Positions 3,762 to 35,383 of a stretch of DNA of 64,000 bases are shown piece after piece. Numbering within the stretch: the first letter of the stretch is position 1; each line of letters begins with the position of its first letter. This DNA is from Dehalococcoidia bacterium. Lineage in GTDB: Bacteria; Chloroflexota; Dehalococcoidia; SM23-28-2; RBG-16-64-32. The notes below the pieces were generated by a model. The model saw nothing but the letters and a program-made list of their open reading frames with translations. It was not told where the DNA came from and searched no databases. The stretch is from positions 26,993 through 90,992 of the forward strand of contig JBBDNA010000006.1 of assembly GCA_040877915.1 (NCBI GenBank), read 5' to 3'. Both the position numbers and the translations under genes were made by a program.

Positions 3762-4712
3762 GTGGTTGCAACAATCTTCCCCGCTAGCGAGACCCAACCC
3801 CACGCTCCGGTGATGGTGGCCGAGGCGCTCGAGCTTCTGGCGGTCCAGCCCGGCGGCCGATACGTGGACTGCACGGTGGGCGGCGGTGGCCACTCGTTGG
3901 CCATCCTGGAGGCCGCCGCCCCCGGTGGTCTCCTCCTGGGCATCGACGCCGACCCGGCCGCCCTGGACACCGCCCGCGAGAGGCTGAAGCCGTACGCGGG
4001 CTCGGCCCTCCTGCGCCAGGCCAACTTCCGCGACCTGGAGACCGTCTGCCGCCAGGCCGACTTCGTGCCAGTGCACGGCGTCCTGTTCGACCTGGGCCTA
4101 TCGTCCATGCAGCTCGCCGACCCGGGGCGCGGCTTCAGCTTCCAGGTCGAAGCGCCGCTGGACATGCGCTTCGGCGCCGGCCAGACCACCACTGCGGACG
4201 AGATAGTGAACGGGTACCCGGAAGGCGAGCTGGCCGACCTGATCTGGCGATACGGCGAAGAACCGGCGTCGCGTCGCATAGCCCGCGCCATCGTCGGCGC
4301 GCGTCCGCTGGGAACGACGACGCAGTTGGCGGACCTCGTGTCCAGAGCCGCGGGCCGCGGCGGTCGCAGCCGCATCCATCCGGCCACGCGGACGTTCCAG
4401 GCGCTGCGCATGGCCGTCAACGACGAGCTGGGCGCGCTCGGCTCGGCGCTGCAGCAGGCCGTCGATGTCCTGGGCCAGGGCGGGAGGCTGGTGGTCATCG
4501 CCTTCCACTCTCTGGAGGACCGGATCGTCAAGCAGTTCATCAGCCACGAGTCGCGCGATTGCGTATGCCCGCCGGAGGCGCCGTCCTGCGTTTGCGGGCA
4601 TCGCGCCTCGCTGCGCCGCGTGACCCGGGGCGCGGTGCGCCCCTCCGAACGAGAGATCGCTGACAACCGGCGCGCCCGCAGCGCCCGACTGCGCGCCGCC
4701 GAGAAGCTATAG
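3762..4712 (+). CDS. rsmH: 16S rRNA (cytosine1402-N4)-methyltransferase RsmH/MraW
   Basis: [30 protein letters not shown] and HSLEDRIVK motifs. The start was moved to GTG 3762, just after the mraZ stop and preceded by GGGGAAAGG. ATG 3813 is an alternative that would remove the conserved H-x-PV motif. Confidence 0.85.
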
Positions 4713-4720
4713 GAGGCCGC

Positions 4721-5152
4721 TTGTCCACGATACCCAAGGCCGGGAGACACGTCCTGCCGGAGGTGCTCCGTTCGCCCAGCCTGCCCGCGCTCCTCATCAT
4801 CTGCGCCATGGCCATCGGCGGCGCCGCCATCATCCCCCTGGTGGGCTCCAGCGTGACCACTTCCACGAACGGCAACGTCCACCGTCTGGACCAGGACCTG
4901 GCGGACTGGCAAGCGCGAGTGCAGGAACGGGAGCTGGACGTTGCTACCATGGCCGGCCTCAACCGGATAGAGACCGTCGCCAAGAACGACCTCCACATGG
5001 AGGAGCCCAAGGACACGCGCTACGTCGTTGTGCCAGCGCCGCCGCCGGAAGAGCGCCGTTTGCCCAGCCGCTACCTGCCGCCCTCACCGGAAGACCGTGA
5101 ATCGGAGCCCGCGCTGTGGCAGCGGGTGCGGGACTGGCTACCTCTGCCGTAG
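4721..5152 (+). CDS. ftsL: Cell division protein FtsL-like (single-pass, coiled-coil)
   Basis: 143 aa with one TM (LPALLIICAMAIGGAAIIPLV) then a heptad-like region. Call rests on its position between rsmH and ftsI; sequence similarity is weak. Confidence 0.55.
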   Translation: MSTIPKAGRHVLPEVLRSPSLPALLIICAMAIGGAAIIPLVGSSVTTSTNGNVHRLDQDLADWQARVQERELDVATMAGLNRIETVAKNDLHMEEPKDTRYVVVPAPPPEERRLPSRYLPPSPEDRESEPALWQRVRDWLPLP

Positions 5153-20014: not shown

Positions 20015-21166
20015 ATGCCGAAACTGCAACTGCCACCCTGGCTGGCCGGCAACCCCCGCCGACAGGCCGTCGCCGGCGGCGCCGGAGTCCTCGCCCTCAT
20101 CCTCATCCTCGCCACCCTCACCGTCGGCGGCGTCTTTTCCGAGAGCTCGGACAGGGTCCTGTCCGTCGTCGCCACGCCGACGCCCACGCCTGCCCCACCC
20201 ACTCCCACCCCCACTCCTACGCCGGCGCCCAGCGAGCCCACGCGGCTGAACGGCCGCCTGGTTTACCCCGAGGAGCTGGCCGCGATCGAGGCCAGGCTGC
20301 CCCTGGCCATAATGTTCGACAACTTCATCGAGGCGCGGCCGCAGCACAACATATCGCAGGCCGACATCGTATTCGAGGTCGTCGCCGAGGGCGGCATCAC
20401 CCGCTTCCTCGGCGTTTTCTGGTCGAACGACCCGGGTCCGGTGCTGGCCGTGCGCTCCGCCCGCGCCTACTACCTGCCCTGGGCGGCCGAGGTGGACGGC
20501 ATCTACGTCCACTGGGGCCGCGCCAAATCTACCAACGCCGCCGCCGACGTTACGTCGACCCTTGAATCGCTGGGCCTGCGCCACTACGACGGCTTCTTCT
20601 CCGGCCCGCCCTACTTCGATCGCGCCCTCGACCGCCTCGGCCCCCACGACGGCATCGCCTACACGGACGCGCTCTGGCAGGCGGCGGAGGGCGACGGCTG
20701 GAGCGGCCCGCCGGAGTTCGAGTCCTGGCCGTTCAAGGACGACGAGCCGCGCGCCGGCGGCGAGGACGCCGCCCCGACTATCGACGTCGGCTTCGGCGGG
20801 CCGTTCTTCTCCGACTACGCCGTCACCTGGACGTACGACGCCGAGACCAACGGCTACGCGCGCAGCCAGGGCGGCTTCGAGCACGTGGACGGGACGACGG
20901 GCGAGACGATAGAGGCTCGCAACGTGGCGGTCATGGTGACGTCCGCCGCCGCCGCCGGCGACGGCACCGCCCACCTGGTGTACGACACCACCGGCAGCGG
21001 CGACGCTGTCGTCTTCCAGGACGGCGTGGCGATCCCCGGCACGTGGGCCAAGGAGGGGCCGTACGCCCGCACCCGCTTCTACGACGCCGCCGGCAACGAG
21101 ATCGCCTTCAACCGCGGCCACACCTGGATCGAAGTGCTCTCCTACGACGATCCTCTCTCGTACTAG
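20015..21166 (+). CDS. DUF3048-family secreted/lipoprotein (YerB-like) with Thr/Pro linker
   Basis: Signal-anchor (VLALILILATLTVGG), a PTPTPAPPTPTPTPTPAP linker, and the DUF3048 core motifs IMFDNFIEARPQHNISQADIVFEVVAEGGITRFLGVF. Confidence 0.6.
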   Translation: MPKLQLPPWLAGNPRRQAVAGGAGVLALILILATLTVGGVFSESSDRVLSVVATPTPTPAPPTPTPTPTPAPSEPTRLNGRLVYPEELAAIEARLPLAIMFDNFIEARPQHNISQADIVFEVVAEGGITRFLGVFWSNDPGPVLAVRSARAYYLPWAAEVDGIYVHWGRAKSTNAAADVTSTLESLGLRHYDGFFSGPPYFDRALDRLGPHDGIAYTDALWQAAEGDGWSGPPEFESWPFKDDEPRAGGEDAAPTIDVGFGGPFFSDYAVTWTYDAETNGYARSQGGFEHVDGTTGETIEARNVAVMVTSAAAAGDGTAHLVYDTTGSGDAVVFQDGVAIPGTWAKEGPYARTRFYDAAGNEIAFNRGHTWIEVLSYDDPLSY

Positions 21167-21488
21167 CCACAGATAGACACAGATTCTACACAGATTAGGT
21201 TCGTGTGGACTCGGTGTCGCTGCTGGTTGATGGCGGTGCAGGGATGCTGAACCTGTGCCCCGTCTGAGTGCATCTGTGGCGATACCTCCTATCCGCTGTC
21301 ATGGCGGGGTGGGAGGGATTCTCTGTGTCTCATCTGTGTGCATCTGTGGCAATTCCGGCGACCCGCTGTCGTAGGCGTCTTGCCACTGTCCACTGTCCAC
21401 TGTCCACTCCCCCGTGTTCCCTGTTCCCTACTCCTTGCTCTTCTCGCCTTCGTGACGCATTTCACCACTAAATGTTGTGTCTCCCCCC

Positions 21489-21517
21489 TTGACAACCCCT
21501 ACATGTAGTGCTATCTT
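21489..21517 (+). promoter_or_regulatory. Putative nrdR promoter with extended -10
   Basis: TTGACA 21489..21494, a 17-nt spacer whose last bases are TGc (21509..21511), then TATCTT at 21512..21517. It lies about 250 nt upstream of nrdR, followed by a GC hairpin (CGCCCCCT-cgctga-AGGGGGCG) at 21525..21546. Confidence 0.4.
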
Positions 21518-21765
21518 TCCTGTTGCGCCCCCTCGCTGAAGGGGGCGAACCGCTTCTGAGAGGCCACGCAGAGTTCTGTAAAGTTGGGCGAATTGATGGA
21601 CGTATCGGCGACCGGGGCGCAGGGTGAGCGCCACCACACCCTGGGGTCTGGCCCCACCGGCTCCGACAACCCGGGGCAGCTACGCCCCGCAGACCGACCC
21701 GCCCCGCTCTCCGCGCGGGCGATCCGCATCGGTCCGGCGCTACCGCCCAGGAAGGCGGCGAAGCC

Positions 21766-22359
21766 GTGAACTGCCCCTTCTGCGCCAGCCCCGACACCCG
21801 CGTCATCGACTCGCGGCCGGACGAAGCGGGCATCCGCCGCCGCCGCGAGTGCCTGGCCTGCGAGCAGCGCTTCACCACTTTCGAGAAGATCGAGCTGGGC
21901 TCCGTCGCCATCGTCAAGAAGGACGACTCGCGCGAGGAGTTCGACCGCGGCAAGATCCTGTCCGGCCTGCGCAAGGCCTGCGACAAGCGGCCCATCCCCT
22001 CCGGCGCCATCGAGGCGATCGCCGATGCCATCGAGCGCGCGGTGTACGCCCAGAACAAGGCCGAGGTCCCCTCGTCCTACATCGGCGAGCTTGTGATGGA
22101 GCGGCTGCGCGAGCTGGACCACATCGCCTACATCCGCTTCGCCTCCGTGTACCGCGCCTTCGCCGACGTTGACGAGCTGGAGCAGGAGCTGGAGGCGCTG
22201 AAGGCGGGCTGGCGCCGCCCCGACGTGCCGCGCGACCAGATGGCGCTGCTGCCGGAGGCCGAGGGCAAGGCGCCGAAGCCGCGGCTGCTGCGCGTGCGCC
22301 GCCAGAAGGACGGTCAGGACGCCCGGAGCCCTAAGGCCCGTCTGGGGAGAGCGCAGTGA
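21766..22359 (+). CDS. nrdR: Transcriptional repressor NrdR (Zn-ribbon + ATP-cone) with ~45-aa C-terminal extension
   Basis: MNCPFCASPDTRVIDSRPDEAGIRRRRECLACEQRFTTFE Zn ribbon, then an ATP cone (VIKKDDSREEFDRGKILSGL...AYIRFASVYRAF). GTG start with a GGAAGG RBS. Confidence 0.9.
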   Translation: MNCPFCASPDTRVIDSRPDEAGIRRRRECLACEQRFTTFEKIELGSVAIVKKDDSREEFDRGKILSGLRKACDKRPIPSGAIEAIADAIERAVYAQNKAEVPSSYIGELVMERLRELDHIAYIRFASVYRAFADVDELEQELEALKAGWRRPDVPRDQMALLPEAEGKAPKPRLLRVRRQKDGQDARSPKARLGRAQ

Positions 22360-22667
22360 CCCAGCCGCCGACCTCGGAGCTGGACGCCCGCATCGAGATG
22401 AAGGCGTTCATCGACCGCTCCCGCGCGCCCTACGCCGAGTGGTACGTGGGGCTGTCCGCCGACCCCCAGACGCGGCTGCACGAGGAGCACGGCGTCCAGG
22501 AGAGCGACTGGTTCATCCACCGCCGCCTGGCCGGCGCCGAGGCGGCCCAGCGCGTCCACGCGTCGCTGGTGGCCCTGGGCTGCGAGGCCGGCGGCGCGGC
22601 GGAGGGCGAGGAGGACGAACCGACCGGCGTGTACGCGTACTGGAAGCGAGGGCACACGACACCATGA
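22356..22667 (+). CDS. Hypothetical protein, translationally coupled to nrdR; possible GIY-YIG-like motif
   Basis: GTG start overlaps the nrdR TGA (GTGA). WYVGLSADPQTRLHEEH resembles the YIG..R.EH half of GIY-YIG nucleases, but the N-terminal GIY half is not clear. Confidence 0.35.
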   Translation: MTQPPTSELDARIEMKAFIDRSRAPYAEWYVGLSADPQTRLHEEHGVQESDWFIHRRLAGAEAAQRVHASLVALGCEAGGAAEGEEDEPTGVYAYWKRGHTTP

Positions 22668-22888
22668 GCATGCTTACCGAGGCGCAGTACGAGGAGTACA
22701 TCGGCCTGCTGAAGGCCTGGGTGGACGCGGAGAAGGCGGGAGGCCCGGACGAGAGCGCGACGCGGGACGCGTACGCCGCCGTGCGCAGCTTCCGCGAGCG
22801 CTACGGCCTCTCGCAGGGGGCGGCGGGGGTGGAGGCGGAGGGGGCGCCGGTACGCGCCGAGTGGCGCCGGGGGGAGGCGGGGGCGTGA
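22664..22888 (+). CDS. Hypothetical small protein (74 aa), translationally coupled (ATGA) to the preceding ORF
   Basis: MSMLTEAQYEEYIGLLKAWVDAEK..., in frame in a GC-rich context. Only coupling and codon periodicity support it. Confidence 0.3.
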   Translation: MSMLTEAQYEEYIGLLKAWVDAEKAGGPDESATRDAYAAVRSFRERYGLSQGAAGVEAEGAPVRAEWRRGEAGA

Positions 22889-22925
22889 GGGGAAATTACA
22901 GACGGGAAGGGTATCCGGAGCTGGT

Positions 22926-23453
22926 GTGATGAGTTCGCACTGTTTCGGCGCCCGCGTCTACGTGATCCGGCACTACGCATTGCGCTGGTCGAGGGACAAG
23001 CTGGCCCGAAAGTTGGTCGAGCGTGGCCATCGGTTACCGCTCGACGATAGTCTAGAACTACGCGAGGTCACGCGCGACGAAATCAAGCGCTGGGAACGCG
23101 GTGAATCCGAACCGTCGTACGTAACAAAGCGGCATGTGGCTATCGTGCTAAGGATACGCCACGAGATTCTGGATCCCGAAGAGCATCCAGGCGACATTTC
23201 GCCTGAGGGTCTCGTAGCCCTCGCCCGAGCTCGCGGACTCACACCTCCGCAGATAAACCAGTATTGGACACTCACGAAGCAGCGTGCGCTATTCAAAGGC
23301 AATCCCGGAATCGGCGAATGGATCTCGATAATCGAACAACTCAGTATTGCAGAGCAGGGCACGCTGTTCACTAGCGGGACTTGGTGCACGCACTGCGGTG
23401 GCTGGATCGAAGACGGCGACGCCGAGTGCCCGGACTGCGGGAACATAGAATGA
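22926..23453 (+). CDS. XRE-family HTH protein with C-terminal CxxC...CxxC zinc ribbon (CapH/DdrO-like candidate)
   Basis: HTH_XRE-like LARKLVERGH...EVTRDEIKRWERGESEPS. The C-terminus carries CTHCGGWIEDGDAECPDCG. Lower GC (~57%) than its flanks. ATGA overlap with the downstream peptidase gene. Confidence 0.55.
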   Translation: MMSSHCFGARVYVIRHYALRWSRDKLARKLVERGHRLPLDDSLELREVTRDEIKRWERGESEPSYVTKRHVAIVLRIRHEILDPEEHPGDISPEGLVALARARGLTPPQINQYWTLTKQRALFKGNPGIGEWISIIEQLSIAEQGTLFTSGTWCTHCGGWIEDGDAECPDCGNIE

Positions 23454-24238
23454 CACAACCCGAACTGCCTCTTCGGAATATGCCAGCGCACCGACCGGCA
23501 AAGGAGGCAGCCCTTGAACGCGCCCGCCAGATCCTGAGGGAATCTGGCATTGACGGACCCCCGGTCGACATCGAGCGCGTGGCCCGTCTAATGGGCACTG
23601 TCGCTGTCGAGGAAGCCAGGCTTGGCGATGTGGCTGCTTGTCTCCTCCCAGGAACGAGAGGCCATACGATTCTGATTAACCGGCGATCACACCCGCTCAG
23701 ACAACGGTTTTCCATAGCACATGAGATCGGTCATCTCATCCTCGGTGCTCGTGGAATTCGTTTCCGAGACATGCGGACGGGACCTGCTGAAAGGTTGTGT
23801 GATGAGCTCGCGGCGGAGCTACTCATGCCCCACGAGATATTTACCCGCGAGATGGACGCCAAGCCGGTATCCCTTGATACCATCTGCGATCTAGCCAACA
23901 CCTTTCAGACGGCGCTAGAGCCTGCCGCTATCCGTTTCGGCGCTCTTGTGTCGGCTCCGGTCCAGGTTGTGTATTGGGAGAAGGTCGAGGATCACCTTCG
24001 CATCAAGTGGACGAATGGAAAGCCAATGCTACCCCGCACTGCCACTATGGGCCTCTTGACCGACCGGGCATTCGGTCCTGCAGAGGCGTTCAATTCCGAT
24101 AGTGAGGAAGGGGTCACGACTTACGCACATTCTTCGCGCTCGAAAAGCCTCGACCTGATCTGCGAATCCAAAGGCTTCAGAGAGCGCCCGTACAGATATG
24201 TTCTGTCTTTGGTTCGCAGGGAAGTAGTGCACGGCTAG
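23450..24238 (+). CDS. ImmA/IrrE-family (COG2856, DUF955) zinc metallopeptidase
   Basis: HExxH motif SIAHEIGHLIL with downstream E (ELLMPHE). Start trimmed to ATG 23450, which overlaps the HTH gene stop. A classic XRE-HTH + ImmA pair. It ends 14 nt before nrdJ. Confidence 0.75.
   Translation: MTQPELPLRNMPAHRPAKEAALERARQILRESGIDGPPVDIERVARLMGTVAVEEARLGDVAACLLPGTRGHTILINRRSHPLRQRFSIAHEIGHLILGARGIRFRDMRTGPAERLCDELAAELLMPHEIFTREMDAKPVSLDTICDLANTFQTALEPAAIRFGALVSAPVQVVYWEKVEDHLRIKWTNGKPMLPRTATMGLLTDRAFGPAEAFNSDSEEGVTTYAHSSRSKSLDLICESKGFRERPYRYVLSLVRREVVHG
24192..24206 (+). promoter_or_regulatory. Palindrome ACAGA-TATGT-TCTGT upstream of nrdJ (candidate NrdR-box-like operator)
   Basis: A perfect 5-bp inverted repeat around an AT-rich core that contains the -10-like TATGTT, about 45 nt upstream of the nrdJ GTG. 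It resembles the ACAC/GTGT-armed NrdR box with one change per arm. Confidence 0.35.
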
Positions 24239-24251
24239 AGGAGGCCAACCA

Positions 24252-27119
24252 GTGACCATCACCCGACCAGACACCCGAACCCGACGACAGGCCAAGAACG
24301 GCGCCCACAAGCCGGCCGCCACCAACGGCAAGCACGCCCCGGCCCTCCGACAGCGCGAGCGGCTCATCCAGCGCCGCTTCACGACGCCGGAGGTCGACCC
24401 CTACGACGCGCTGGCGTGGGAGCTGCGCACCGCCGTCATCCAGGGCTCCGACGGCACGCCCGTTTTCGAGCAGAAGGACGTCGAGTTCCCCGTCGGCTGG
24501 TCGCAGAACGCGACGAACGTCGTCGCCTCCAAGTACTTCCGCGGCCCCCTCAGCGATTCGGCGGCGGCAGCGCCCGGTCGCAACGCGCCCGTGCGCGAGC
24601 GCTCCGTGAAGACGCTGATCGACCGCATCATCGACAACATCACGCGCTGGGGCCGCGAGGGCGGCTACTTCGCCGACGAAGACGAAGCCGCCGCCTTCCG
24701 CGACGAGTTGAAGCACATCCTGGTCAACCAGGTCGCCTGCTTCAACTCGCCCGTCTGGTTCAACCTCGGCATCGAGGAGAAGCCCCAGTGCTCCGCCTGC
24801 TTCATCCTGGCCATCGATGACGAGATGGACAGCATCCTGGAGTGGTACCGCACCGAAGGCAAGATCTTCAAGGGCGGCTCCGGCTCCGGCATCAACCTCT
24901 CGAACCTGCGCTCGTCCAGGGAGCGGCTGACCGCGGGCGGGCTGGCCTCGGGGCCGGTGTCGTTCATGCGCGGGGCGGACGCCATCGCCGGCACGATCAA
25001 GTCCGGCGGCAAGACCCGTCGCGCCGCCAAGATGGTCATCCTCGACGCCGGCCACCCGGACATCGAAGAGTTCATCGACTGCAAGGCGAAGGAGGAGCGC
25101 AAGGCCTACGCCCTGGGCGAGGCCGGCTACGACGTGACGCTGGACGGCGACGCCTGGATCTCCATCCAGTACCAGAACGCCAACAACTCCGTCCGCGTGG
25201 CCGACGACTTCATGCGCGCCTACGAGGAGGACGGCGAGTGGCAGACCCGCTACGTCACCAACGGCGAGCCGGCCAACACCTACCGCGCCCGCGAGCTGAT
25301 GCGTCGCATCGCCCAGGCGGCCTGGGAGTGCGCCGACCCCGGCATGCAGTACCACACCACGATCAACGACTGGCACACCTGCCCCAACACCGGGCCGATC
25401 ACCGCCTCCAACCCCTGCTCCGAGTACATGCACCTCGACAACTCCGCCTGCAACCTGGCCTCGATAAACCTGCTGAAGTTCCTCCGGGAGGAACAAGGGG
25501 AAGCGGAGGGCGGTCCTGTTCCTGGTACCTTGAACCCTGTTCCTGGCGTCGATGTCGGGGCCTACTTCGACATCGACGCCTATAGGCACACCTGCGGGGT
25601 CATGATCACGGCCCAGGAGATCATCGTCTCCAACTCCTCCTACCCGACCGAGAAGATCGCGAAGAACGCGGAGGACTACCGGCAGCTGGGGCTGGGCTAC
25701 TCCAACCTGGGCGCACTGCTGATGTCGCTGGGCACCCCGTACGACTCGGACGAGGGCCGCGCCCTGGCCGCCGCCCTCACCGCCGTCATGACCGGCCAGG
25801 CCTACGCCACCTCCGCCGCCATCGCCGCCCGCGTCGGGCCGTTCAAAGGCTACGAGCTGAACCGCGAGCCAATGCTGCGCGTCATCGAGAAGCACCGCGC
25901 CGCCACGAGCGAGATCGACGATGCGGAGGCCCCCCCTCCGCTCGTGGCGGCGGCCCGCCAGGCCTGGGACGAGGCGCTGGCCCTCGGGCAAGAGTACGGC
26001 TATCGAAACTCGCAGGCGACGGTCCTCGCGCCCACGGGCACGATCAGCTTCATGATGGACTGCGACACGACGGGTATCGAGCCGGATATCGCCCTGATCA
26101 AGTACAAGAACCTGGTCGGCGGCGGCCTGATGAAGATCGTCAACTCCTCGGTGCCGCGCGCCCTGCACGGGCTCGGCTACGACGAACAGGCGTCGGAGGC
26201 CATCCTGGCCCACATAGACGAGACCGGTACCATCGAGGGCGCGCCCGGCCTCCTCGACGAGCACCTCCCGGTGTTCGACTGCGCGTTCAAGCCGCAGAAC
26301 GGCGTGCGCACGGTCCACTGGACGGGTCACGTGCGGATGATGGGCGCGGTGCAGCCGTTCATTTCCGGCGCCATCTCCAAGACCGTCAACCTGCCGGAGG
26401 ATGCCAGCGTCGAGGAGATCGAGGAGGCGTACTACGAGGGCTGGCGGCACGGGCTGAAGGCGCTGGCCATCTACCGCGACGGCTCCAAGCGGGCGCAGGT
26501 CCTGAGCACGAGCAAGGACGGCGACGCGAAGGCCAAGGACGAGCCTGCGGGCCACCCGGTGCGACGCCGCCTCCCGGCGACCCGGACGTCGCTCACCCAC
26601 AAGTTCGCGATCGAGGGGCACGAGGGGTACATCACGGCCGGTCTGTACGAGGACGGCTCGCCGGGCGAGATCTTCGTGACGATGGCCAAAGAGGGGTCGA
26701 CGCTGTCCGGCATGCTGGACGCCTTCGCCACCTCCATCTCGCTGACGCTGCAGTACGGCGTGCCGCTGCACGACATGGTGAACAAGTTCTCGCACATGCG
26801 GTTCGAGCCATCGGGGCGGACGGAGAACGCCGAGATACCGGTGGCCCAGTCGATCGTCGACTACATCTTCCGCTGGCTGGCCTCGCAGTTCATGAGCGAG
26901 GAGGAGAAGGAGCAGTTCGGAGTGCTATCGCCGGCGGTGAAGGCGAAGATGATGGCGGCGGAGTACGGGACGCCCCCGGCGCTGGCCGGCAACGGCGCCA
27001 GCTACAACAACTCGGGGCAGACGGACGCGCCGCCCTGCGCCAGCTGCGGCTGGATCATGGTGCGCTGCGGCACCTGCTACCGCTGCGACAACTGCGGCAC
27101 GACGAGCGGCTGCGGCTAG
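24252..27119 (+). CDS. nrdJ: Class II (adenosylcobalamin-dependent) ribonucleotide reductase, long form (955 aa)
   Basis: Large RNR catalytic core (NSVRVADDFM, LAPTGTISFMMDCDTTGIEP, ISKTVNLP), a C-terminal CASCGW...CGTCYRCDNCG zinc ribbon, no nrdB/nrdF partner, nrdR upstream. GGAGG RBS then GTG. Confidence 0.85.
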   Translation: MTITRPDTRTRRQAKNGAHKPAATNGKHAPALRQRERLIQRRFTTPEVDPYDALAWELRTAVIQGSDGTPVFEQKDVEFPVGWSQNATNVVASKYFRGPLSDSAAAAPGRNAPVRERSVKTLIDRIIDNITRWGREGGYFADEDEAAAFRDELKHILVNQVACFNSPVWFNLGIEEKPQCSACFILAIDDEMDSILEWYRTEGKIFKGGSGSGINLSNLRSSRERLTAGGLASGPVSFMRGADAIAGTIKSGGKTRRAAKMVILDAGHPDIEEFIDCKAKEERKAYALGEAGYDVTLDGDAWISIQYQNANNSVRVADDFMRAYEEDGEWQTRYVTNGEPANTYRARELMRRIAQAAWECADPGMQYHTTINDWHTCPNTGPITASNPCSEYMHLDNSACNLASINLLKFLREEQGEAEGGPVPGTLNPVPGVDVGAYFDIDAYRHTCGVMITAQEIIVSNSSYPTEKIAKNAEDYRQLGLGYSNLGALLMSLGTPYDSDEGRALAAALTAVMTGQAYATSAAIAARVGPFKGYELNREPMLRVIEKHRAATSEIDDAEAPPPLVAAARQAWDEALALGQEYGYRNSQATVLAPTGTISFMMDCDTTGIEPDIALIKYKNLVGGGLMKIVNSSVPRALHGLGYDEQASEAILAHIDETGTIEGAPGLLDEHLPVFDCAFKPQNGVRTVHWTGHVRMMGAVQPFISGAISKTVNLPEDASVEEIEEAYYEGWRHGLKALAIYRDGSKRAQVLSTSKDGDAKAKDEPAGHPVRRRLPATRTSLTHKFAIEGHEGYITAGLYEDGSPGEIFVTMAKEGSTLSGMLDAFATSISLTLQYGVPLHDMVNKFSHMRFEPSGRTENAEIPVAQSIVDYIFRWLASQFMSEEEKEQFGVLSPAVKAKMMAAEYGTPPALAGNGASYNNSGQTDAPPCASCGWIMVRCGTCYRCDNCGTTSGCG

Positions 27120-27148
27120 ATTCGCCAAACCTCCCTTTGGGCGGGAGT

Positions 27149-27185
27149 GGCGCCCCCGGCAGGCGGGCGCCATTTCTGTCTCCGC
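27149..27185 (+). terminator. Putative terminator after nrdJ
   Basis: Imperfect GC inverted repeat GGCGCCC(c)-cggcag-(g)CGGGCGCC followed by ATTTCTGTCT. Sits 30 nt past the nrdJ stop. Confidence 0.35.
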
Positions 27186-27291
27186 TTACTTCGGCTGTAC
27201 CTGAGCCCCTGTAACGATCCCCCATCGCCGGCATCCTCACGTTGTCGCGGCGGGCCGCGTACCGGCACGCCGCACAGACTGGAGGATCCCG

Positions 27292-27852
27292 ATGAAGACA
27301 CTCATGGCACTGGCCCTCGCAGTTGGCGCGCTCATTCTCGTCGCCTGCTCGAGCGAAGGGGGCGGGCCAGCATTCGTCAGAGTGTCTGAAGGCACGTTGA
27401 AGCCCGGAAACGAAATCCCCGCGCCCACAGGTGACCCGGTCGTCACGCTCTCTGGCGAGGTCACACCGAACGTGGGCGACAGCCTGGAATTCGACAGGGA
27501 GACGATTGAGAGCATCGGCCTTATCGAATACACGGTCGACGACCCCTGGGAGAACGCCAGCGTGACCTACACCGGCGTCCTCCTCTCCGATCTGCTGGAG
27601 GTGGCCGGCGCGCCGTCCTCCGCGAGCGCCATCCACCTGGTGGCGCTCGACGATTACGCGGCTGACATCAGCCTGGCCGATGTCGAACGGCTGCCGATAA
27701 TGCTCGCCACCCGCTCCGACGGCGAGTACATGGAGGTCGTGGACGGCGGCCCCACCCGGATCGTCTACCCGTATCACGCCTATCCGGACCTGGAAGACGC
27801 CGCGACGAACGATCTCTGGGTATGGAGCATCGCCCGGATAGAGGTGCCATGA
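27292..27852 (+). CDS. Lipoprotein with molybdopterin-oxidoreductase-like (Oxidored_molyb-fold) domain
   Basis: Lipobox LILVAC-SS, then GVLLSDLLEVAG...ALDDYAADISLADV...LATRSDGEYM...GGPTRIVYPY, the pattern of YedY/sulfite-oxidase-fold periplasmic domains. GGAGG RBS. Confidence 0.5.
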   Translation: MKTLMALALAVGALILVACSSEGGGPAFVRVSEGTLKPGNEIPAPTGDPVVTLSGEVTPNVGDSLEFDRETIESIGLIEYTVDDPWENASVTYTGVLLSDLLEVAGAPSSASAIHLVALDDYAADISLADVERLPIMLATRSDGEYMEVVDGGPTRIVYPYHAYPDLEDAATNDLWVWSIARIEVP

Positions 27853-30617
27853 GCCAGGAGATCCCTCTAAGGCGGCGCCGCCTCTCTCCGGCGCAGATCG
27901 TCCTCATCGCGGCGATCAGCGTCCTGGTGAGCGCCATCGCCGTGCTCGCCGTCCGCGCCTCCTCCCAGCTTAGCGGCACCGCCCGCGAGTTTGAGAACAC
28001 CGGCATTGTTACGACTAACATGGCTAACATCCAGCGTGAGCTGCTCCTGCTGGAGATAGAGTCGGAGCGGTTCGTCCACGGGCCCTCCGATGACCCCGCT
28101 CCAGTCGAGCTGCCCCGCAGCCTCCTGGCGAACCAGCTGCGCCGGGCCCAGATCCGCGCCGAGGACGACGGCGAGCTAAGGGGCGCGCTCTCCGACATTC
28201 AGAAAACGCTGGGCCGGTATGACGTAGAGCTAGCCGGGTTCTCCGCGGCCGGTACGCCGGAGGAGGCTGAGGCGAGCCACGAAGCGCTGGAGGCGACCCT
28301 GGCCTCGGCCGAGGAGCAGGTCAAGGCCCTCTACGATAAAGAGGAAGGCCAATTCTTCAGCGCCGTGAGCGCCGGCATCAGCGCGCAGCGGGCATCCCAC
28401 AGGCTCCTGCTGGTAGGCGGCGGAGTCTTGCTGGCCGTCAGCTTGGGCCTCGTCGTCTCTCTCGGCCGCAGCGTCAGCAGCGACTTCAAGCGAGCCTACC
28501 ACCGGGTCCAGGAGGAGCTCTCGCAACGGGAGCGGGCCCTGGCGGAGCTGGGGCGAAAGGAAGAGGAGTTCCGGACGCTGGCCAGCGTCTCTCCGGCCCT
28601 GATCTTCCGGGCCGACAGCGAGGGGAATTGCACCTATGTGAACGAGCGGTGGAGGGAGTTTTCCGGCCTGTCCCGGGGAGCGGCTCTGGGCAGGGGCTGG
28701 GCGGCCGCGCTCCACCCGGAGGACAGGGACCGGGTCATTGCCCAGTTTCTAGAGGCGGCAGAGAAGAGCGCCGTATGGCAGACGGAGTACCGCTTCGTTC
28801 GGCCGGACGGCAGCTGCGCCTGGGTAAAGGGAGCGGCAGCGCCCCAGAAGTCGGAGGACGGCTCCGTCGCCGGATACGTCGGTACCCTCCTGGACATCAC
28901 GGAAAGCAAGGCGGCCGAGCAAGCGATTCGTGAGAGCGAGGAGCGCTTCCGCCAGCTGTTGAACCAGGCCGCGGACGCTATCTTCGTAACCGACGCGCAA
29001 GGAAGGTTCGTCGACGTCAACGAGGCCGCCTGTCAGAGCCTGGGCTACACGCGCGAGGAACTGGTCACGATGACGGTGCAAGACATAGCCGACCCGCAGG
29101 TATATGCGAATGCGCGGGAGGCCCTTGCCGGCGGCGCCACGGCTACGATCGAGACGGACGAGCGCCGGAAGGATGGCTCCACTGTGCCCGTTGAAGTCCG
29201 GATCAGGTACATCCAGAGCCGTGGCCAGCGCTTCGGGCTGGCCATCGCCCGCGACGTCAGCGAGCGCAAGGAGAGCGAGGCCGCCCTGCAACGAGCGAAC
29301 CAGGAGCTGGAAGACGACCGGCGAGAGATAAAGGCCCTCAACCGCTCGCTGGAGGAGAAGGTCCGGCAGCGCACAGCCGAGCTTGAGGTCTCCAACCGCG
29401 AGCTCCGGGAGCGCAACCGGGAGCTGACGGACGTCCGTGTTCTGGCCGCGACCGACGCGCTTACCGGCTTGCCCAATCACCGCGCCTTCCACGAGACCAT
29501 CCGCAAGATCACCGAGGAGACGGAAGGCGCAGGCGCGCCCCTGAGCCTGCTGATGCTGGATATCGATGGGTTCAAGCGCATCAACGACTCGCAGGGCCAC
29601 CTGGTGGGCGATCAGGTCCTGCGCGAGATCGCGGCCAGCCTCACGCGGCACGTTACACGGGACCGCGCCTATCGCTACGGCGGCGACGAGTTCGCCGTCA
29701 TATTGCCGCGCACAGGCCGCCTCGAGGCCCTGCGCGTCGCCGATCGCATCCGCCGCTCGGTCGACCGCCAGGTCAGAGTCGACGGCCGCGGCGTCACCAT
29801 CAGCCTGGGCGCGGCGGCCTACCCGGAGTCCGCCGGCTCCGCCGAGGAGCTGATCTACGGCGCCGACGCGGCGATGTACTGGGCCAAATCCGCCGGCAAG
29901 AACCGCGTGGGCGACTGGAGCAAGCTCATCCGCAGGCGCGATGAGGACGCCACGCCCTGGTACGTGGGCGATCGCGCCGTCAGAGCCCCCGACGCCGTGG
30001 CCGCGCTCGTCGCCGCGCTCACGGCCAAGGACCCCAGCACGAGCGCGCACACCGACCGTTGCTCCTGGTACTCGGCGCAGCTCGCGCGGACGCTGGGCCT
30101 CAGTGAAGAGGAGATATCGACGATCCGCCTCGCCTCCCTGCTGCACGACGTCGGCAAGATAGGCGTGCCGGACGAGATCCTGTTCAAACCGGGGCCCCTG
30201 AACGAGGATGAGTGGGCCGAGATGAAGAAGCACCCGGCGGCCGCTCTACACGTCCTGCGAGAGGTCCGGGCCATCACGGACGCCACTCCCGCCATCCTTC
30301 ACCACCACGAGCACTTCGACGGCTCCGGCTACCCCGACGGGCTGAAGGGCGAGAATATCCCCATCGCCTCACGGATACTGCTGGTAACGGACGCCTTTGA
30401 CGCCATGACCACTGACCGGCCCTACCGAAAGGCGATGCCCATCGAGCACGCCATCGGGGAGCTAACGCGTAACAAGGGTAGCCAGTTCGACCCCAGGATC
30501 GTCGACGCCTTCCTCAAGATAATCGAAGGCTCCGGGGTTTACGAGCCGCACTCTCACGAGAGCGATGGCACGCCTTCCGGGGCGCAGCCGTCTCTGGCGG
30601 GGGGGAACGCGGGGTAG
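27849..30617 (+). CDS. Membrane-anchored PAS/PAC - GGDEF - HD-GYP cyclic-di-GMP signalling protein
   Basis: ATGA-coupled to the lipoprotein gene. Has one TM, coiled coils, about three PAS/PAC repeats, an intact GGDEF site (RYGGDEF) and an HD-GYP domain (HDVGKIGVPDEIL...HHHEHFDGSGYP). Confidence 0.85.
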   Translation: MSQEIPLRRRRLSPAQIVLIAAISVLVSAIAVLAVRASSQLSGTAREFENTGIVTTNMANIQRELLLLEIESERFVHGPSDDPAPVELPRSLLANQLRRAQIRAEDDGELRGALSDIQKTLGRYDVELAGFSAAGTPEEAEASHEALEATLASAEEQVKALYDKEEGQFFSAVSAGISAQRASHRLLLVGGGVLLAVSLGLVVSLGRSVSSDFKRAYHRVQEELSQRERALAELGRKEEEFRTLASVSPALIFRADSEGNCTYVNERWREFSGLSRGAALGRGWAAALHPEDRDRVIAQFLEAAEKSAVWQTEYRFVRPDGSCAWVKGAAAPQKSEDGSVAGYVGTLLDITESKAAEQAIRESEERFRQLLNQAADAIFVTDAQGRFVDVNEAACQSLGYTREELVTMTVQDIADPQVYANAREALAGGATATIETDERRKDGSTVPVEVRIRYIQSRGQRFGLAIARDVSERKESEAALQRANQELEDDRREIKALNRSLEEKVRQRTAELEVSNRELRERNRELTDVRVLAATDALTGLPNHRAFHETIRKITEETEGAGAPLSLLMLDIDGFKRINDSQGHLVGDQVLREIAASLTRHVTRDRAYRYGGDEFAVILPRTGRLEALRVADRIRRSVDRQVRVDGRGVTISLGAAAYPESAGSAEELIYGADAAMYWAKSAGKNRVGDWSKLIRRRDEDATPWYVGDRAVRAPDAVAALVAALTAKDPSTSAHTDRCSWYSAQLARTLGLSEEEISTIRLASLLHDVGKIGVPDEILFKPGPLNEDEWAEMKKHPAAALHVLREVRAITDATPAILHHHEHFDGSGYPDGLKGENIPIASRILLVTDAFDAMTTDRPYRKAMPIEHAIGELTRNKGSQFDPRIVDAFLKIIEGSGVYEPHSHESDGTPSGAQPSLAGGNAG

Positions 30618-34390: not shown

Positions 34391-35383
34391 ATGATCGAAA
34401 GACTCGAAGGGTTTGCCCTCCTAGACCTCATGAGGAAATTGCCTGAGCAGTCGAAGTATGACTGCAAGAGAGATCTTACTCTCGACAGCCACGACCGAAA
34501 GGCGGAGCTGATCAAAGACATCACCAGTATCGCGAACGCGCACGGAGACGAGGTGGGCTACCTTTTCTTCGGTGTTGATCCAGTAAGTAGCGAACTCGCG
34601 GTTGGTATCACCCAGCGCCATGACGACGCGACTCTTCAGCAAATAGTGAATTCGAAACTGGAGCGGCCCGTCTCCTTCCTGTACTACGAAACTGAGGTGA
34701 ACGGTAGCTGGGTGGGAGTAGCTGTGATTCCGCCGAGTATCACCCGTCCGCACATCATTAAGGCGCAGTACGGGAGGCTTCGCGCGGGTCAGATTCCCAT
34801 ACGCAGGGGCTCAAGCACGACGTGGGCAACCAGCGAGGACCTCCAACTGATGCTGGAACGCCAGCGTGCTCGGGAGTCCCAAGGTCAGGATATAGCTGAA
34901 CTCGTGCGAAGAGCCGGGGATCCCGCTGTGCCCGTGGCACAACTTGCTCTCGAAGTATGGCAGCTAGGATCGCAGGTCGCGCCGCCCGAACATCTTGAAT
35001 GGCTACGCCTGGAAATCGCTGGGTTCAAGACGGGAAGCGTGGTGCCTGATTACCGTGAAGTAGCCGGCCACGTCTCTGTCTTTGAAATAAATCTGAAAGC
35101 ACTGTCCTTCCACAATCTCGATTCCATCGTTCAGACTGAGCCAGATAAATTCAAGGAGGTGCCCCTGAGACTAGGGCAGTCAATCGCTGAGCTAGAGGAC
35201 ATGCTCGGCCCTGATGGATCGGGCCAGGGCGCGGGATTTTTCCAGACTCGGCGTCAGTTCGAGACGCAGAACGGGGAGGCTGTGGAGGCATACCTCTACT
35301 TCAAGCCTAGTGCTGTCAGACGAGTCGTCACATTGATAAGGAATCGCATTGCGCGTTTCCTTATGACGCTTCATGCAAGTTAA
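34391..35383 (+). CDS. AlbA_2 / Schlafen-like divergent AAA-ATPase-fold domain protein (low-GC)
   Basis: DITSIANAHGDEVGYLFFGVDPVSSELAVGI fits the AlbA_2 (PF04326) core (AFANt.GGyliiGVdd). GC about 52% vs about 68% elsewhere. C-terminal half has no recognisable domain. Confidence 0.5.
   Translation: MIERLEGFALLDLMRKLPEQSKYDCKRDLTLDSHDRKAELIKDITSIANAHGDEVGYLFFGVDPVSSELAVGITQRHDDATLQQIVNSKLERPVSFLYYETEVNGSWVGVAVIPPSITRPHIIKAQYGRLRAGQIPIRRGSSTTWATSEDLQLMLERQRARESQGQDIAELVRRAGDPAVPVAQLALEVWQLGSQVAPPEHLEWLRLEIAGFKTGSVVPDYREVAGHVSVFEINLKALSFHNLDSIVQTEPDKFKEVPLRLGQSIAELEDMLGPDGSGQGAGFFQTRRQFETQNGEAVEAYLYFKPSAVRRVVTLIRNRIARFLMTLHAS

Follow-up and report, generated by a model that had tools for sequence, protein, structure and literature searches.

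Gene organisation of the nrdR–nrdJ locus

The locus considered here is a run of six genes on the forward strand of a 64,000-nucleotide (nt) stretch of DNA (the window) from a Dehalococcoidia bacterium (GenBank assembly GCA_040877915.1, contig JBBDNA010000006.1, positions 26,993 to 90,992). The run opens with nrdR and closes with nrdJ, the gene of a ribonucleotide reductase (RNR). Between these two lie a pair of small genes, orfA and orfB, and then a second pair encoding a helix-turn-helix (HTH) protein with a zinc ribbon, referred to below as the partner, and a zinc metallopeptidase of the IrrE/CapP type (family M78). All positions are window coordinates and all six genes are read from the + strand. 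The nrdR product (21766–22359; 197 amino acids, aa) is an ATP/dATP-sensing repressor with matches to the Pfam families Zn_ribbon_NrdR (3e-19) and ATP-cone (8e-21). The small conserved proteins OrfA (22356–22667; 103 aa) and OrfB (22664–22888; 74 aa) are encoded by genes overlapping the preceding stop codon by GTGA and ATGA, respectively, and both genes have a GC content at third codon positions (GC3) of 0.95. The partner gene (22929–23453; 174 aa), which encodes the presumed repressor and presumed substrate of the peptidase, follows after a gap of 40 nt. Its start was set at ATG 22929, following the NCBI entry and the starts of homologues, one codon later than the GTG at 22926 given in the list of open reading frames (ORFs). 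The peptidase gene (23450–24238; 262 aa) overlaps the partner gene by ATGA, and nrdJ (24252–27119) encodes a class II, B12-dependent RNR of 955 aa with the Pfam domains Ribonuc_red_2_N, Ribonuc_red_lgC barrel (1.7e-140) and TSCPD.

The successive junctions of the run are therefore GTGA, ATGA, 40 nt, ATGA and 13 nt. The last gap, from the TAG stop of the peptidase gene to the GTG start of nrdJ, reads AGGAGGCCAACCA and contains the Shine-Dalgarno sequence AGGAGG (24239–24244), which, as read from the sequence, lies 7 nt 5' of the GTG. A preliminary description of this DNA had recognised the 955-aa class II RNR and its GTG start after GGAGG, in agreement with the Pfam domains and the ribosome-binding sequence found here, although it counted 14 nt in the gap. 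It had also placed the pair downstream of nrdR, which is correct, without mentioning orfA and orfB in between. Its statement that no terminator separates the pair from nrdJ holds as well, as a scan of 21000–27600 yielded no terminator-like site on the + strand. An Rfam scan of 20500–28000 gave nothing credible. To judge from the sequence, this layout is compatible with co-transcription of the pair and nrdJ from an NrdR-controlled promoter.

Conservation of the arrangement in Dehalococcoidia

A survey of gene neighbourhoods, proposed in the preliminary description for nrdJ orthologues, was carried out starting from the peptidase. Homologues with 27–58% identity were identified by BLASTP and tblastn and the loci of 13 relatives were inspected. 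The M78 gene adjoins nrdJ in 12 of these 13 loci, and nrdR is visible in the same locus for 11 of the 12; the contig of the remaining one, L123, begins at nrdJ, so that its upstream region is out of view. The background consists of 184 generic M78 loci among the matches listed in scans of genome, metagenome and viral collections; the genome and viral scans were made with alignment A3, and the generic HExxH pattern is dominant in them. NrdR or NrdJ occurs within the flanks of only one of these 184 loci, which is the Dehalococcoidia chromosome L015.

The relatives differ in the order of the genes. In the window clade (L001, L005 and L006, the last together with L007 and L008), M78 is 45–58% identical to the window peptidase and the order is nrdR, orfA and/or orfB, a partner of 175 aa, M78 and nrdJ; L001 and L006 also have the left flank of the window, with its abhydrolase and DUF3048 genes. 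Deeper relatives differ in the side of nrdJ on which the pair lies, 5' or 3'. In the former (L011/12, L094 and L121; M78 28–32% identical) nrdR is followed by the gene of a 100–105-aa protein, M78 and nrdJ, while the latter (L009, L095, L096, L122 and L015; 27–33%) have the order nrdR, nrdJ, partner and M78. L123 (M78 ~34%) combines a split nrdJ with genes for a predicted nuclease, a 215-aa protein, M78 and MNT/HEPN, and in L013 (34%), the exception, M78 lies beside Ku and LigD. The window NrdJ shares 80–82% identity with those of L001, L005 and L006, and the deeper-clade NrdJ proteins are 27–31% identical to it and have a different N-terminal domain. As these two NrdJ types are so distant, the linkage is to the RNR operon generally and not to one nrdJ lineage. 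On comparison of these sequences, the presence of the pair in the RNR operon recurs across Dehalococcoidia and is a conserved arrangement, not a one-off insertion.

Within clades, the identity of M78 follows that of NrdR (NrdR/M78, in %: L005–L006, 96/72; L095–L122, 88/85; L094–L121, 72/58; window–L001, 77/58). Vertical co-inheritance with a faster evolving peptidase would give this pattern. Both genes of the pair are under purifying selection, since the differences between the window and L001 lie mostly at third codon positions (first/second/third position: partner 0.26/0.23/0.64, peptidase 0.29/0.25/0.63). A metagenome scan with the single M78 protein returned generic relatives (30–39% identity, via the word AELLMPHE) and no new loci of the window clade. 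Among the matches listed, no close relatives were found in the viral collection (80 viral loci) or outside Dehalococcoidia in the genome and metagenome scans.

Three of these loci have features of their own. In L013 (4816–6798; protein P0020, on a 4.77-Mb contig), the sole full-length relative without an RNR link, the peptidase gene directly follows Ku and lies next to LigD, the genes of non-homologous end joining; it has a host-like GC content of 0.69 and no called HTH partner. In L123 (20–7069), nrdJ is present as two ORFs (203 and 762 aa) followed by the genes of a pP_pnuc_1 protein (a predicted pPIWI-associated nuclease), a 215-aa TPR-like protein, M78 and an MNT/HEPN pair, resembling a defence or toxin-antitoxin (TA) islet attached to an RNR gene. 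On the complete Dehalococcoidia chromosome L015 (4001–7531), the nrdJ ORF is 1176 aa long with about its last third aligning in one piece, and may contain an intein or another insertion.

The two small genes preceding the pair have a distribution of their own. OrfA homologues form 63 clusters, ~95–114 aa long apart from a fragment of 69 aa, and those with a name are from Dehalococcoidia. OrfA has no match in Pfam, NCBIfam, PADLOC or PHROG; a single JGI label on one of its clusters reads 'predicted GIY-YIG superfamily endonuclease'. OrfB, for which profile searches including PADLOC gave no family match, is present in L001, L005 and L006 at 53–67% identity; L001 is without orfA.

Promoter, NrdR boxes and a candidate operator

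A single sigma-70-like promoter, TTGACA-17 nt-TATCTT (21489–21517, + strand), was found in the scan of 21000–27600, and it is overlaid by two NrdR boxes. An NrdR box is defined as a 16-bp element with C4, A6, A8, T9, T11 and G13, occurring as two boxes 15–16 bp apart (PMC13584703). Both box 1, CCACTAAATGTTGTGT (21465–21480, +), and box 2, CCCCTACATGTAGTGC (21496–21511, +), have 6/6 key positions, giving 12/12 for the pair with the canonical 15-bp linker. The -35 hexamer lies in the linker and box 2 occupies the promoter spacer, the boxes overlapping the -35 and spacer region. Box 1 is conserved in L001, L005 and L006. Of nine related loci tested, eight have two boxes with at least 10/12 key positions over the promoter, and L015 has none. 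These boxes agree with the earlier proposal that nrdJ is also under NrdR. No further pair of NrdR boxes is present before nrdJ or before the HTH/M78 pair. To judge from the sequence, nrdJ is reached only via the nrdR promoter through four genes. A lone match to the NrdR core at 23192, inside the partner gene, is without a second box and was dismissed as chance.

Two further elements flank the boxes. Directly 5' of box 1 is a palindrome-like block, GTGACGCATTTCAC (21452–21465, +), which occurs once in the whole window and is near-invariant in an alignment of the four window-clade loci, where only position 21456 varies (C or A). This block is a candidate for an additional operator or a UP-like element. 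Just 3' of the -10 hexamer lies a perfect inverted repeat, CGCCCCCT-N6-AGGGGGCG (21526–21547, +), whose arms are identical and whose loop differs in four of four window-clade loci. Clades with other partner proteins do not have this repeat, and the window contains no second good copy. Judged by its sequence and position, the repeat is a candidate for an operator bound by a dimer just past the start site, and equally for a hairpin in the leader RNA. In the four window-clade loci, conservation sets in abruptly at TCGTGA(C/A)GCATTTCAC and extends through the boxes, promoter, inverted repeat and a TTCTGT.AAG block. Directly 5' of the partner gene, there is no conserved non-coding element or internal promoter, conservation starting at the ATG. 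A riboswitch-like leader was considered and rejected, as the 240-nt leader folds like shuffled sequence (z = 0.43) and has no Rfam match.

Further upstream, between the DUF3048 gene and the nrdR promoter (21159–21420), lies a repeat-rich intergenic stretch of lower GC content that is not conserved in L001 or L006. It contains a 48-nt direct repeat (21253–21300 and 21323–21370, 79% identical), CACAGAT-type repeats in inverted orientation (21159–21196 versus 21250–21357) and a short tandem CCACTGT array (21383–21410).

The M78 peptidase

The peptidase scores 56.1 bits (E 4.1e-15; cut-off 22) with the Pfam family Peptidase_M78 (PF06114) and matches the PADLOC capP model with 4.3e-31. A profile built from 52 peptidase homologues retrieves CapP (7t5t, 8e-27) and IrrE/PprI (8slm and 3dte, ~1e-24) from the PDB, the values overall being of the order of 1e-23 to 1e-26; the matches to these chains are full-length (positions 17–262) and include the GAF-like domain. 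An AlphaFold2 model of the peptidase has a mean predicted local distance difference test score (pLDDT) of 90.8, and its top PDB matches in Foldseek are the PprI complex with single-stranded DNA (ssDNA; 8sln), IrrE (3dti) and CapP (7t5t), with template modelling (TM) scores of 0.57–0.63. The C-terminal third alone matches GAF domains. The predicted domain order is a peptidase domain (H91-E92-x2-H95, E123), a helical HTH-like linker and a GAF-like domain at ~170–257. On the strength of the full-length profile matches, the modelled fold and the GAF-like C-terminus, the protein is assigned as a full-length IrrE/CapP homologue with the complete three-domain sensor-protease architecture. These results bear out the earlier classification of the two genes as a pair of the IrrE/DdrO or CapP/CapH kind, an M78 peptidase with an XRE-like partner.

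All 52 sequences have H91, E92, H95 and E114, and at least 90% of them also have E123, which lies in AAELLMP and is presumed to be the third ligand of the zinc. In the alignment, this motif corresponds to HE..H and LLMP in CapP and IrrE. R84 lies seven residues before the first histidine, the same spacing as that of the ssDNA-contacting R90 of CapP, and is the only contact residue that could be mapped. No cysteine switch was found in the peptidase: the loop 96–113 (LILGARGIRFRDMRTGPA) contains no cysteine, and the nearest, C117, is on the ERLCD helix, six residues before E123. Such a switch is present in just 33% of CapP proteins, and IrrE is without it. Besides the M78 families, metallo-protease and regulator families of PHROG match the pair with 5e-15 to 8e-12. 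The only sequence signal of the TA type is the NCBIfam spr1629 repressor/antitoxin family, with 26.6 bits against a cut-off of 335.

The HTH/zinc-ribbon partner

The partner is predicted to consist of an N-terminal extension, an XRE-type five-helix HTH domain (~20–83), a helical middle region (~90–140) with near-invariant W113 and F122 in the family alignment, and a C-terminal zinc ribbon. The ribbon is C153-x2-C156-x10-C167-x2-C170, i.e. CxxC-x10-CxxC, correcting the spacing of x13 given previously. The family is rare, with 15 representatives, mostly of 170–179 aa, in an exhaustive HMMER search of 1.84 billion proteins. Its HTH consensus reads ...L..VT..DIR.WE.G..EPS......IA.VLG...ELLDP. An insertion inside the HTH had been considered and was dropped, as realignment to canonical members (P0133) gave a normal HTH after an N-terminal extension.

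Of the searches suggested in the preliminary description, those against Pfam and CapH/CapP succeeded for the peptidase and not for the window partner, which stays below the HTH_3 cut-off and has no match among the PADLOC models. Because the window protein alone is under this threshold, its assignment rests on family-level and positional evidence. In the partner family, HTH_3 is matched by six of 13 members (best 1.4e-4), HTH_31 by three (best 8e-6) and zinc-ribbon families by four. Searched with the family profile, the PDB yields P22 C2, CylR2 and DdrO, all below threshold (E 0.14–0.7). Position provides the best evidence: the gene at the same place beside M78 encodes a clear HTH_3 protein in L015 (2.3e-12), L095 and L122. 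At the family level, these sequence matches support the identification of the partner as a diverged XRE-type HTH protein. The partners in several clades are small (100–108 aa) and show a weak HTH signal only. Partners that end in a Cys4 ribbon are found in two clades.

Two observations concern partner genes of relatives. Between nrdJ and M78 in L096 lies an uncalled ORF (~4495–5001; ~168 aa) whose product begins with an HTH-like part and ends with a CxxC-x10-CxC ribbon. Its domains follow one another as in the window partner, to which it has no detectable sequence similarity. In L006 (4547–5084), and also in L007 and L008, a partner homologue of the 175-aa type is frameshifted near codon 92 (GGLSP|...), with the adjacent M78 intact. 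The frameshift is present in three contig sources (JGI, ENA and Logan) and could represent a pseudogene, a recoding site or a shared assembly error.

Base composition of the pair

The lower GC content of the pair, given earlier as ~57% against ~68% locally, is confirmed with values of 58.3% and 57.5%, compared to 70.5% for nrdR, 67.8% for nrdJ and 68–75% for the neighbours overall. The GC3 of the pair is 0.60–0.66 and that of the flanks 0.94–0.95. The dip is not peculiar to this genome: in every RNR-linked locus (the window, L001, L005, L006, L009, L011, L094, L095 and L096) the pair is ~8–19 GC points and 20–35 GC3 points under nrdR and nrdJ, in hosts from 51% to 68% GC. The GC contents of pair and flank are 0.57–0.63 and 0.67–0.74 in the window clade, 0.53–0.54 and 0.64–0.67 in L095, 0.48–0.54 and 0.63–0.65 in L009, 0.41–0.45 and 0.55 in L011, and 0.42–0.49 and 0.52–0.53 in L094. 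The interval between orfB and the partner gene holds differing small low-GC ORFs in L001 and L006.

Apart from the pair, a single gene of the window (34391–35383, +; GC 0.55, GC3 0.61) is clearly low in GC content. Its 330-aa product is defence- or abortive-infection-like, with Schlafen/AlbA_2 (6.7e-15) and AbiTii (4.4e-15) domains.

Comparison with known protease/repressor systems

The best sequence match of the peptidase is CapP, with which it shares the three-domain fold and an HTH partner gene immediately 5' of its own. All homologues aligned retain the catalytic His, Glu and His, at least 90% of them retain the Glu presumed to be the third ligand, and the arginine at the position of CapP R90 is conserved. 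Unlike the CapP proteins that carry it, the window peptidase has no cysteine-switch loop. The genetic context differs too: a CapP/CapH pair is located 5' of an immune operon and is oriented away from it, whereas the window pair is inside the nrdR–nrdJ operon on the same strand, with nrdR, orfA, orfB and nrdJ as neighbours and no anti-phage operon, and neither orfA, orfB nor the partner has a PADLOC match. Furthermore, the window partner has a helical middle region and a Cys4 zinc ribbon.

IrrE (PprI)/DdrO of Deinococcus provides the top structural matches of the peptidase (8sln, 3dti and 8slm; E ~1e-11, TM ~0.6) and a full-length profile match at ~1e-24, and the cysteine switch is absent in both. 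By analogy, the expected logic would be that of an XRE repressor cleaved after DNA damage. However, the identity between the peptidases is ~20% and the similarity between partner and DdrO is at noise level (E 0.5). The Deinococcus system also governs a dispersed DNA-repair regulon (recA, pprA and ddr genes), while the window module is embedded in a single RNR operon. In ImmA/ImmR of ICEBs1 and the phage-type anti-repressor pairs, an M78 (PF06114) gene likewise lies beside an XRE-type repressor gene, but the window pair is without surrounding mobile-element genes, its peptidase has an extra GAF-like domain, and none of the 80 viral loci listed is close to it.

With respect to the operon itself, the nearest counterpart is nrdRJ of Streptomyces coelicolor, in which both genes are co-transcribed from a promoter with NrdR boxes. 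As in the window, nrdR leads and nrdJ closes the operon, and the promoter is overlapped by two boxes of 16 bp that lie 15 bp apart; the window differs in having four extra genes between nrdR and nrdJ, including the protease/repressor pair. The fold of the M78-like and GAF-like parts is also similar (E ~1e-8) to that of the PrpR-type regulators of Mycobacterium tuberculosis (6cyy and 6cz6), single-chain transcription factors that fuse XRE HTH, M78-like and GAF-like domains. In the window, by contrast, HTH and peptidase are two proteins, and the HExxH motif is preserved.

Proposed function and alternative explanations

IrrE and CapP bind ssDNA between the peptidase and GAF domains and then cleave the XRE partner, by which repression is relieved (PMC10904395, PMC13228613). 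On account of homology, architecture and gene coupling, the same kind of switch acting on the RNR operon is taken as the likeliest explanation of the locus. We see about an even chance that 21465–27119 is one NrdR-controlled operon of nrdR, orfA, orfB, the partner gene, M78 and nrdJ, in which the pair is a long-resident protease/repressor switch. By analogy with the characterised systems, the pair would most likely de-repress the synthesis of deoxyribonucleoside triphosphates (dNTPs) in response to a second input, which is probably ssDNA or DNA damage. The genes present and their coupling, the NrdR boxes, the peptidase fold with its catalytic motif and the conserved neighbourhood are evident from the sequences; binding of the partner to DNA and to an operator, its cleavage, the triggering signal and any influence on nrdJ are inferred. 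In the proposed scheme, an oligomer of the HTH partner would bind an operator at the promoter or leader of the operon, for which the palindrome at 21526–21547 is the best candidate, adding its repression to that of NrdR. This second repressor would be removed once ssDNA accumulates, the peptidase cutting it within the helical middle region. A speculative cut site is F122-K123 in the near-invariant ALF-K/R-G motif, by analogy with F82-R83 of CapH. The operon, nrdJ included, would then be de-repressed and dNTP supply would rise although NrdR reads a normal dATP/ATP ratio.

Several observations weigh against such a switch, and part of them would also be accommodated if the pair were an accessory or selfish cassette, either a TA-like COG2856/XRE system or a regulator that is a remnant or member of a defence islet, that is housed in the RNR operon for expression and retention and regulates itself or unlinked genes. 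The HTH_3 match of the window partner has 14.6 bits (E 0.034), short of the 23 bits that Pfam requires, and the AlphaFold2 model of this protein, built from a two-sequence input, is unusable (pLDDT 45). The partners of different clades are not detectably homologous (hhalign probability 19%, and nothing in BLASTP), and a frameshift interrupts the partner gene, but not M78, in L006, L007 and L008. The palindrome could just as well act as an RNA hairpin, the invariant stems of the four sequences being compatible with either. The persistent drop in GC3, low against every host and shared within the window with the abortive-infection-like gene, fits an accessory or selfish element at least equally; long residence and a persistently foreign-looking composition are hard to reconcile. 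With 63 clusters of OrfA against ~8 clusters of close M78 relatives, the pair moreover looks patchy in its own clade, seemingly present in some members and absent in others, although this absence is inferred solely from contig sizes, the long orfA contigs (429, 53, 25 and 13 kb) not being among the M78 contigs. Fast evolution (M78 45–58% identical where NrdJ is ~80%), the variable small low-GC ORFs adjoining the pair in L001 and L006, and the position of the L123 pair downstream of nrdJ together with MNT/HEPN and a predicted pPIWI-associated nuclease domain also point to a cassette, and COG2856/XRE pairs have been treated as TA systems (PMC10538038). However, no integrase, recombinase or repeat boundary was seen. 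Linkage to nrdJ in 12 of 13 relatives against 1 of the 184 background loci listed is hard to obtain without a functional tie, M78 identity co-varies with NrdR inside clades, the tight translational coupling to nrdJ is conserved, and the three-domain sensor of the CapP/IrrE type suggests a signalling protease rather than a toxin. A cassette of this kind is considered unlikely.

The switch may also be real and control the RNR operon while responding to something other than ssDNA, namely to redox state or free zinc through a labile Cys4 ribbon of the partner, or to a nucleotide at the GAF-like domain. The ribbon is found at the C-terminus of the partners of two clades, nucleotide binding is known for GAF domains elsewhere, and the peptidase is without the cysteine switch that makes CapP strictly ssDNA-dependent. 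In the passages of PMC13228613 that discuss PMC7907104, IrrE activity in cells is described as depending on zinc freed by oxidative stress. Set against this are the conserved arginine at the position of R90, the ssDNA contact of CapP, the PprI–ssDNA complex as the closest structural match, and the location of the sole non-RNR relative next to Ku and LigD, and we consider a different signal rather improbable. It would be a poorer bet still that the peptidase targets NrdR itself, or that the HTH/zinc-ribbon protein is an adaptor or anti-repressor of NrdR and the module overrides NrdR. This reading draws on the presence of nrdR in 11 of the 12 linked loci, on the NrdR boxes as the only operator conserved across clades, and on the 100–108-aa partners with weak HTH signal in several clades; yet known M78 regulators cut the XRE protein encoded alongside them, the clear HTH_3 partners of L015, L095 and L122 match the classic pair, and the ribbon spacing of the partner, read from the sequences, is unlike that of NrdR. 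Finally, the preliminary description had taken the GC dip as a sign that the module was acquired and grafted onto nrdJ. The compositional contrast on which this was based is real (GC 58% versus 68–70% in the flanks, GC3 0.60–0.66 versus 0.94), but a recent horizontal acquisition in this genome is unsupported, because the arrangement recurs in relatives, M78 tracks NrdR and the dip recurs across hosts. L001, L005 and L006 have the same arrangement, dip and flanks, the arrangement is also found in deeper clades with hosts of 51–62% GC, and no close relatives were present in the viral collection, or outside Dehalococcoidia in the genome and metagenome scans, among the matches listed. A recent graft is accordingly very improbable.

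Novelty and possible implications for dNTP supply in Dehalococcoidia

A search of the full-text literature that combined IrrE, ImmA, CapP, M78, COG2856 or XRE with RNR, NrdR, nrdJ, Chloroflexi or Dehalococcoid returned no description of this arrangement. The NrdR literature examined mentions no protease/repressor insert or peptidase, and the CapP/PprI literature examined contains no link to RNR. As far as this search shows, the arrangement is undescribed, as had been supposed earlier. The component families are known; what is new is the housekeeping RNR context, on the same strand and translationally coupled, the architecture of the partner and the conservation across the class. A further puzzle is the low GC content that the pair has in every host, which bears on how accessory-looking genes persist within essential operons.

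The increase in dNTPs after DNA damage is well understood in a few model species only, and NrdR senses only ATP and dATP. If the proposed switch operates, the pair would provide a direct route from DNA damage to dNTP supply in Dehalococcoidia, a class that is mostly uncultured and environmentally important. A core metabolic enzyme would then join the known targets of this protease family, which are DNA-repair regulons, mobile elements and immune operons. More tentatively, and less likely than not, Dehalococcoidia and perhaps Chloroflexota more widely may possess a dedicated checkpoint of dNTP synthesis, in which an ssDNA-sensing protease would override NrdR upon DNA damage or phage replication, acting via a repressor at the leader palindrome or via NrdR itself, with the Cys4 ribbon adding a redox or zinc input. 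Such a checkpoint would constitute a new regulatory layer on an essential and universally conserved enzyme and the first housekeeping target of this protease family outside Deinococcus.

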